Shown here piece after piece: positions 18,693 through 18,926 of a DNA stretch of 64,000 bases (its first letter is position 1; the number at the start of each line of letters is the position of its first letter). The DNA is taken from IMG/VR virus record IMGVR_UViG_3300000313_000054; one strand, written 5' to 3'. The translations under genes were made by a program, and so were the position numbers. A model generated the notes under the pieces. The model saw only the letters and a list, made by a program, of their open reading frames with translations, was not told the origin of the DNA and searched no databases. This DNA comes from a virus.

Positions 18693-18721
18693 TTGACAAG
18701 TGTGTTGTAATATGCTATATT
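18693..18721 (+). promoter_or_regulatory. sigma-70 promoter TTGACA-17-TGcTATATT
   Basis: -35 at 18693-18698, -10 at 18716-18721. Confidence 0.65.
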
Positions 18722-18752
18722 ATTGGTAAGATCAGTGATGGAACAACCAAAG

Positions 18753-18785
18753 CGGATTCTCTGGAATATGAGAGTCCGTTTTTTA
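18753..18785 (+). terminator. terminator or attenuator hairpin in the leader, immediately after GGAACAACCAAAG (18740-18752)
   Basis: CGGATTCTC-tggaatat-GAGAGTCCG then TTTTTTATT. Confidence 0.6.
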
Positions 18786-18800
18786 TTAAGGAAAGTTTAA

Positions 18801-18926
18801 ATGGTAACAAGTAAAGTTTGTCCACATTGTAAGAAGAGTGATAGAGTAAATAAACATGGCGTAGCTGGATGGAAAGATATTAAACCACGCTATGCTTGTC
18901 TACGTTGTAGAAAGACATTCTTTTAA
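18801..18926 (+). CDS. stand-alone InsA/IS1595-type zinc-ribbon mini-protein (41 aa), copy A
   Basis: CPHCKKSDRVNKHG...RYACLRCRKTF matches the CPxC-x(n)-QRYxCxxCxxTF zinc-ribbon motif of IS1 InsA N-terminus. Confidence 0.6.
   Translation: MVTSKVCPHCKKSDRVNKHGVAGWKDIKPRYACLRCRKTFF

Follow-up and report, generated by a model that had tools for sequence, protein, structure and literature searches.

A terminator-fused RNA hairpin and a linked small protein as a candidate antitermination pair in uncultivated phages

Introduction

Why would a phage place the same short sequence directly in front of several of its terminators, in two cases only just past a promoter? The question is raised by a 64,000-nucleotide (nt) stretch of DNA from the virus recorded in IMG/VR as IMGVR_UViG_3300000313_000054, which as a whole we call the window and in which a 13-nt motif stands against the 5' side of three intrinsic terminators. 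The initial annotation of this DNA had described a three-copy unit, composed of a promoter, a leader carrying the motif, a terminator and a short open reading frame (ORF) for an InsA-type zinc ribbon, and had proposed that it either produces small RNAs (sRNAs) with a common seed or forms an attenuator that controls the zinc-ribbon mini-proteins. The observation is real and non-random and looks regulatory, but the conserved unit is the hairpin-terminator together with ORF60, a gene for a protein of 60 amino acids (aa), and not the promoter together with the zinc ribbon. As judged from sequence, the motif is the core of a small structured RNA element that may serve as the cognate cis site of the ORF60-family protein, through which termination would be relieved, a reading that we regard as evenly poised between right and wrong.

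A motif fused to three terminators

The motif, GGAACAACCRAAG, occurs at 18740, 53781 and 57566 (copies A, B and C), on the + strand only. These are three matches where 0.12 are expected, none of 100 shuffles reaches three, and the claim that the motif is non-random thus holds. A hairpin with a U-tract directly 3' of the motif had also been described and is found at all three copies, the terminator hairpins having a dG (folding free energy) of -13.6 to -17.2. The + strand of the window has only six convincing terminators in intergenic DNA, and the motif is present at three of these. The three copies, like all those from the other phages described below, are followed by a GC-containing stem-loop and then a U-tract, and are on this basis predicted to abut intrinsic terminators.

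Element A (18739-18752, + strand) is made up of the mini-hairpin UGG-AACAA-CCA (18739-18749), a linker AA and then a G, and is followed by terminator A (18753-18784, + strand; z = -3.85) with a stem-loop at 18753-18778 and a T6 tract at 18779-18784. Elements B (53780-53793) and C (57565-57578), also on the + strand, both have the mini-hairpin CGG-AACAA-CCG (53780-53790 and 57565-57575) and the linker AA, with G53793 and G57578, respectively, as the first base of the terminator stem. Terminator B (53793-53836, + strand; z = -3.9) comprises a stem-loop at 53793-53826 and a T-rich tract at 53827-53836, and terminator C (57578-57622, + strand) a stem-loop at 57578-57613 plus TTTTAGTTT.

Copies A and C lie 12-16 nt 3' of predicted sigma-70 start sites, which bears out the near-consensus promoter described ahead of the motif. 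Promoter A (18693-18721, + strand) matches the consensus, with the -35 box TTGACA at 18693-18698 and a TG-extended -10 box, TATATT, at 18716-18721 (predicted start ~18728), and promoter C (57517-57545, + strand), a paralogue of the promoter at 10273, has the -35 box TTGACT and a TG-extended -10 box TACTAT at 57540 (predicted start ~57552). At both loci the terminator is indeed followed by a ribosome-binding site (RBS) and a zinc-ribbon ORF, of 41 aa at A (18801-18926, + strand) and 40 aa at C (57643-57765, + strand). Copy B, which had been taken for a third example of the same unit, is built differently: it has no adjacent promoter and lies 16 nt 3' of the stop codon of ORF60 (53581-53763, + strand), ~250 nt from the promoter of the ORF60 cassette (53525-53554, + strand; TTGACA ... 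TG-n-TAACAT). The zinc-ribbon ORF that had been assigned to it (ORF B', 55 aa; 54633-54800, + strand) is found 800 bp past motif B; three other ORFs lie in between and it has a promoter of its own, at 54596, and so is not part of element B. What stands of the three-copy unit is therefore the motif with its terminator, whereas the full promoter-to-zinc-ribbon arrangement occurs only twice, at A and C. The leader at promoter 10273 (10273-10390, + strand) was considered as a fourth copy; it shows the related arrangement of promoter, leader and terminator (10357-10385) and has no mini-hairpin, for which reason it is not counted.

The motif as a structured RNA

As RNA, the motif (20-nt hairpin sequence, GUAGCGGAACAACCGAAGCU) folds into a 3-bp stem with a RACAA pentaloop (Y-N-G-RACAA-C-N'-R), followed by a 2-nt A-R linker and then the terminator stem. 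The linker is 2 nt long in all instances, the final G of the motif being the first base of the terminator stem, and all 15 instances lie on the sense strand at this fixed spacing. The first pair of the stem is U-A in copy A and C-G in copies B and C, a compensatory change. In an alignment of 14 sequences, most of them retrieved via the exact motif and the informative ones being copy A and the phage loci L308, L310 and L253, 95% of cells are paired, the pair types are CG/UA and GC/CG/AU, and the covariation score is reached by none of 500 shuffles. Rfam returned nothing but three tRNAs for the whole window at the gathering threshold and only noise for 53560-53860 at E <= 10. No boxA is found near the elements, boxA-like matches being at chance level and all on the minus strand. 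An extended antiterminator stem, in which the 5' flank would pair with the start of the terminator, looked good in four sequences and failed once seven more had been added.

Linkage to a family of small phage proteins

Does the element travel with a partner? An ORF60-family gene followed by the hairpin-terminator is found in at least nine other independent uncultivated phages, with GC contents of 0.33-0.66, the two together forming a cassette that recurs in many unrelated tailed phages. The family consists of proteins of 45-62 aa, and ORF60, the proposed trans-acting partner, on which the initial annotation had not remarked, is its sole match in the window (78 bits against the family hidden Markov model, HMM). 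Run against 34,192 six-frame ORFs from ~310 loci, this HMM matches nothing beyond the motif-associated genes.

A scan of viral contigs with the 14-mer plus a T-run gave 49 loci, six of which (five independent phages, GC 0.43-0.66) have the motif abutting a strong terminator in the same register. An ORF60-family gene ends 12-307 nt upstream in all six and in none of the other 43, an association for which we estimate a Fisher probability of ~6e-7 with the five independent phages counted. A scan with the 16-mer AGCGGAACAACCGAAG had failed because its flanks were too strict, all 29 hits being coding or chance. Retrieval via the protein, blind to the motif, yielded CCG-AACAA-CGG-AGG at L308 and CAG-GACAA-CUG-AGG at L310, each abutting a terminator; the stem differences of these two are textbook examples of compensatory change. 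In the other phages, the cassette lies between the portal and the prohead protease or major head protein genes (L286 and L273), between the large terminase and portal genes (L264) or 5' of the small terminase gene (L277), that is, at head and packaging junctions, where late-gene switches usually lie.

Close relatives proved hard to find, and relatives were retrieved via homologues of the glycosyltransferase that adjoins copy B. In L261, whose glycosyltransferase is 65% identical, a promoter and an ORF60 homologue are followed by CGGAACAACCGAAGG and then a different terminator, these 15 nt forming an island of identity in otherwise diverged non-coding DNA. L253 has a promoter, an ORF60 homologue, UCG-AAAA-CGA-AAG and a terminator. 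As far as their loci are covered, L258 and L254 lack both an ORF60-family gene and a hairpin-terminator at the positions homologous to B and C; L258 keeps the promoter and the zinc-ribbon gene of locus C, with a 27-nt leader that has neither motif nor terminator. In the window, cassette B (promoter 53525, ORF60 and terminator B) sits between the glycosyltransferase gene and ORF86, two genes that overlap directly in L258.

The family has no match above the curated cut-offs in Pfam, PHROG or NCBIfam and none in PDB by profile search. In Pfam, the window ORF60 and the L253 homologue have no match at E <= 0.1, and seven family members have none at E <= 1, CAT and ANTAR included, except for a weak one to DUF2292 (PF10055), which is seen in two of the seven at E about 0.008 (16.2 bits, cutoff 22) and not in the window ORF60. 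One member also matches NCBIfam OscA weakly (E = 0.016), again below cut-off. A tblastn search with four members against 50,697 GenBank phages gave no credible match, weak matches to Gordonia phages being spurious; alignments of ORF86 and ORF60 either were too weak to be used in locus searches or found nothing in the viral collection, and a larger family alignment added nothing. In the literature on DUF2292/YezD, phage antitermination and gene transfer agent (GTA) g3.5 we found nothing relevant.

A proposed protein-timed switch

This genome has one cassette (B) and two orphan hairpin-terminators (A and C). If the hairpin is the site of ORF60, the orphans would gate the genes past them, first the zinc ribbons and then the large structural ORFs. 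Early, transcripts from the promoters at 18693, 53525 and 57517 would stop at the terminators, giving ~55-70-nt RNAs at A and C. Later, accumulated ORF60 protein would bind the hairpin on the nascent RNA and, with just 2 nt between it and the foot of the terminator stem, would keep that stem from closing beside the U-tract, so that RNA polymerase reads through. ORF60 would act in cis at its own terminator, B, and in trans at the orphans A and C, as a protein-timed antitermination switch. The arrangement of promoter, short leader and terminator ahead of long operons, as initially described, is real and looks regulatory. The structural genes that follow terminators A and C have no further promoter in between, and some readthrough would thus be needed for these genes to be expressed. 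Binding by ORF60 is the simplest model because of this lack of another promoter and because the hairpin is the sole feature common to the three terminators; we infer both the RNA binding of ORF60 and the direction of its effect.

Several observations weigh against this model. ORF60 has a near-neutral charge, with no recognisable RNA-binding domain and no Arg-rich N-terminus, and its single-sequence AlphaFold model is all-helical and of low confidence (predicted local distance difference test, pLDDT, 68) and was not used. Family members that share the identical 14-mer are only 9-40% identical as proteins, which could point to a conserved host partner. The mini-hairpin and the terminator overlap by one G and both can form together, so that there is no classical alternative antiterminator fold, and the sample of instances is biased, as most were found by searching for the exact motif. 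In the relative L260, an ORF60 homologue is followed by a terminator without a clear mini-hairpin. Scans of metagenomes and GTDB gave mostly chance matches with two bacterial exceptions, in which CGGAACAACCGAAG abuts a strong terminator in a 3' untranslated region (UTR) and no ORF60-family gene is present in the flanks covered: L072 (5002-5050), from a gut bacterium with a GC content of about 0.57 and seen in ~30 near-identical metagenome contigs, and L153, from an Acidobacteria metagenome-assembled genome. They amount to 1 of about 55 and 1/120 matches, which is about the chance rate, and are compatible with chance or with an orphan bacterial use.

Protein-controlled readthrough of terminators is a classic phage principle (N, Q, put), and to our knowledge it is known from a few families only. 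More tentatively than the local reading, we suggest that the pair could be a widespread system of phage gene timing, in which a family of 45-62-aa proteins recognises a 14-nt terminator-fused hairpin and switches the terminator off in cis and in trans, delaying head, packaging and virion genes in tailed phages of very different hosts. If true, this would add a compact new pair, a ~14-nt hairpin welded to a terminator and a ~50-aa protein, found in phages of 33%-66% GC and missing from Rfam, Pfam and PHROG annotation. It would also give a function to a recurrent 'hypothetical' ORF of head and packaging modules, account for strong terminators inside late operons and could serve synthetic biology as a very small orthogonal terminator switch.

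Other explanations

The rival that survives best keeps the same partners and changes the outcome. ORF60 might strengthen termination, as do HK022 Nun, PyrR and TRAP, or protect or mark the RNA 3' end, which would mean autoregulation of the ORF60 transcript and shut-off or stabilisation at A and C. Linkage and covariation fit any RNA-protein interaction at the base of a terminator, and in every case the element is found where the ORF60 transcript has its 3' end. However, the terminators look canonical and strong as they are, a mere strengthening would leave no evident route of expression for the structural genes behind A and C, and it is not obvious what use there would be in stabilising RNAs of 55-70 nt; we consider this rival unlikely.

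Distinctly unlikely is an element that is independent of ORF60, either a self-acting RNA or the site of a conserved host factor (RNA polymerase, NusA, Hfq or an RNase), which would merely travel with the gene in a moron-like cassette. It keeps some weight because the identical 14-mer occurs in phages with GC contents of 0.33-0.66 alongside very divergent partner proteins and because two bacterial loci have orphan copies without ORF60; the insertion of cassette B between genes that are adjacent in L258, and its different place in L253, fit such mobility. Against it, the RNA varies when sampled via the protein (L308, L310, L253 and L260), as co-evolving partners would, in relatives without ORF60 the element, too, is missing from the sites homologous to B and C, and the bacterial orphans are about as frequent as chance predicts.

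That A and C are genes for ~55-70-nt terminated sRNAs, acting through a common seed on host or phage mRNAs, was one of the two functions first suggested. The promoters directly before the terminators are strong and would yield such RNAs, and the AAC-AAC sequence and U-tail are reminiscent of Hfq-binding features. The supposed single-stranded seed, however, turns out to be base-paired and to covary through compensatory changes, and complementary targets in the window (8-10-mers) are not above shuffles. In addition, the element belongs to the 3' UTR of a protein gene at copy B and in every other phage and is not free-standing there, and the structural genes depend on readthrough of A and C, all of which makes an sRNA very improbable.

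The other suggestion, an attenuator that either governs the InsA-like mini-proteins or is governed by them, so that the downstream gene would regulate itself, fares slightly worse still. A zinc ribbon is the first gene past the terminator at A and C, in the distant relative L031 a zinc-ribbon ORF likewise stands behind a terminator, and phages have small zinc-finger RNA binders such as Mu Com. The tie to these proteins is weakened by L258, which has the zinc-ribbon C homologue and its promoter without the hairpin or the terminator, and by copy B and all instances outside the lineage, which have no such zinc ribbon downstream and where the motif travels with the ORF60 family instead. Moreover, the A/C zinc-ribbon family is nearly confined to this lineage, while the RNA element is widespread.

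Weakest of all, and barely credible to us, is a DNA-level operator, in which CGG-N5-CCG would be bound by a dimeric DNA-binding protein as a roadblock just past promoters A and C: the motif is an inverted repeat and lies there at about +12 to +25, a usual operator position, but its uniform strand and spacing to the terminator stem, its asymmetric and conserved loop and 3' tail, the free Watson-Crick swaps in its stem and the position of copy B and the other-phage copies away from promoters do not suit an operator.

Zinc-ribbon genes and the operons behind them

Zinc-ribbon ORFs A and C are paralogues (65% identical), and homologues of ORF B', each with its own promoter, are present in L254, L258 and L260. 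The InsA/IS1595 label that these ORFs had been given is the best to be had, and the Cys pattern CPxC...(Q)RYxCxxCxxTF is present, but the profile matches are sub-threshold, with NCBIfam NF050000 at 23.3-25.9 bits (cutoff 28) and Pfam PF03811 at 18 bits (cutoff 26.1). PHROG 1191 'transposase' is matched at E about 5e-6. As stated at the outset, no transposase is attached, the mini-ORFs stopping after 40-55 aa with none adjacent; no helix-turn-helix or transposase part follows, and they are not inside an insertion sequence (IS). A word-index search found no zinc-ribbon homologues, and a full HMMER search of 1.84 billion representatives returned only the query itself, one 52-aa relative in another phage, whose locus has no leader or terminator, and one repeat-protein artefact. 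Two scans of viral contigs, one using the zinc-ribbon alignment and the other an N-terminal portion of the giant ORF described next, gave nothing.

ORF A is followed on the + strand by a Lys-rich 59-aa ORF (18939-19118) and a 2586-aa ORF (19132-26892), which contains many 'LTKEYILEQ'-type repeats and a Pro/Thr/Ser-rich linker. Out of 5.8 billion proteins only P0002, encoded on a 118-kb contig, is homologous to the latter, and distantly so; the phage lineage is very poorly sampled. L031, found via this giant ORF, has a terminator, a zinc ribbon and a basic ORF; the motif is not clear there. Behind ORF C, also on the + strand, come a basic 52-aa ORF (57802-57960; 'LLRGIEHGM' family) and then large surface or tail-like ORFs. 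The basic 52-aa family (MPVKIRKxxxG...LLRGIEHGM) is found in many unrelated viral contigs, including L031 (5184-5345) and L244-L252.

Promoters and other features of the window

The shared sequence noted upstream of the promoters at 10273 and 57517 is confirmed and extends over 56 nt with 79% identity (repeat family D14). Further words are repeated among the regulatory regions: TGGTCTGAG has just two occurrences, at 18648 and 57482, 27-37 nt 5' of the -35 boxes of promoters A and C, the two distances differing by about one helical turn, GAGGTCGAG at 18654 and 10331, and (C/T)CGAGTAGC at 10362 and 57557, while AGTCGAG is also seen 5' of the terminator in L260. The GC-rich words common to 18648-18672, 57468-57495 and 10331-10370 may be transcription factor sites. 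Around or just past the -10 box of many strong promoters (11466, 14481, 32144, 38380 and 53525) there is an alternating purine-pyrimidine run (TATGTATGTATG), which is kept in relatives (L253, L258 and L260) and marks a second promoter class, distinct from the TGCTAC type of A, C and 10273.

The window as a whole is AT-rich (GC ~0.33), phage-like and coding on one strand only, all real-looking ORFs of at least 100 aa being on the + strand, and near-consensus sigma-70 promoters with an extended -10 box are numerous. It includes a glycosylation gene cluster at 38-53.5 kb and also encodes very large ORFs without an assigned function. It has no match among GenBank phages, and its 67-kb source contig is present in JGI sample 3300001213 and Logan run SRR404151. 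The three tRNAs were called with Rfam covariance models; the tRNA-Ser(CGA) call (6621-6719) is 99 nt, unusually long even for a class II tRNA, and adjoins a normal 85-nt tRNA-Ser(UGA). A direct repeat of 115 nt, 99% identical, is found at 1-115 and 7211-7325, with a spacing of 7.2 kb (repeat family D5). In the region 10390-11060, two ~110-nt copies (10504-10614 and 10855-10968), 80-85% identical and GC-rich (~0.55-0.6 vs 0.33 for the genome), flank a GC-richer ORF-like stretch. They lie 3' of promoter 10273 and its leader terminator, directly after a NUMOD3/DUF559 homing-endonuclease-like ORF (9553-10263), have a predicted multi-stem fold with two compensatory pairs and no Rfam match at E <= 1, and may represent a novel structured RNA or an intron-like element.

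Comparison with known systems

Among the components taken singly, the zinc-ribbon mini-ORFs are closest to IS1 InsA and IS1595, with which they share the Cys pattern and whose zinc-binding domains give their best profile matches; in contrast to these, they are conserved in this phage lineage at the head of structural operons. The ORF60 family resembles DUF2292/YezD/OscA in its size and in having a helix followed by a 'YG-x-[IV]-x-[IV] ... G-x-P-V' pattern, but all matches are below the curated cut-offs and DUF2292 has no reported link to RNA or phages. Cassette B is like a moron in having its own promoter and terminator and in being inserted between genes that are adjacent in a relative, with the L253 cassette at another position; a plain moron terminator, however, would have neither a covarying conserved hairpin nor orphan copies in the leaders of other operons.

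The lambda N/nut system would be comparable in that a small phage protein pairs with a short hairpin, whose pentaloop is rich in A (AACAA or GACAA here; in boxB, GAAAA for lambda and GACAA for P22) and whose sequence is phage-specific and varies with the protein. The likeness to the P22 loop is one of sequence and may extend to the GNRA-like fold of boxB. The layout is similar, with sites just past promoters (nutL) and one after a small first gene (cro-nutR-tR1). ORF60, however, lacks the arginine-rich motif of N and is not similar to it, a boxA is absent, the stem, at 3 bp, is shorter than that of boxB, and a 2-nt linker ties the hairpin to a single terminator, which points to local and not processive action. 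Local, non-processive antitermination by a small RNA-binding module on a hairpin immediately 5' of an intrinsic terminator is the mode of the BglG/SacY/LicT (CAT-RAT) and ANTAR systems, but their targets overlap the 5' arm of the terminator to give mutually exclusive folds, whereas the overlap here is one base, and neither a profile match to CAT or ANTAR nor an attached sensory domain is found in the ORF60 family. With lambda Q (PR'-qut-tR', 6S RNA), the arrangement shares a strong constitutive promoter, a short terminated leader RNA, a long late operon and a regulator gene just 5' of packaging and head genes. Q, on the other hand, is a DNA binder that acts at the promoter, where it is loaded onto a paused complex that depends on sigma, whereas the conserved feature here is an RNA hairpin, copy B stands ~250 nt away from its promoter, and in other phages the copies come after coding genes, far from promoters. 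By analogy, then, the layout resembles that of lambda (pL-nutL; pR-cro-nutR-tR1; PR'-tR') and the locality that of RAT/CAT, with components that match none of these families: an undescribed pair, it seems, that works on a known principle.

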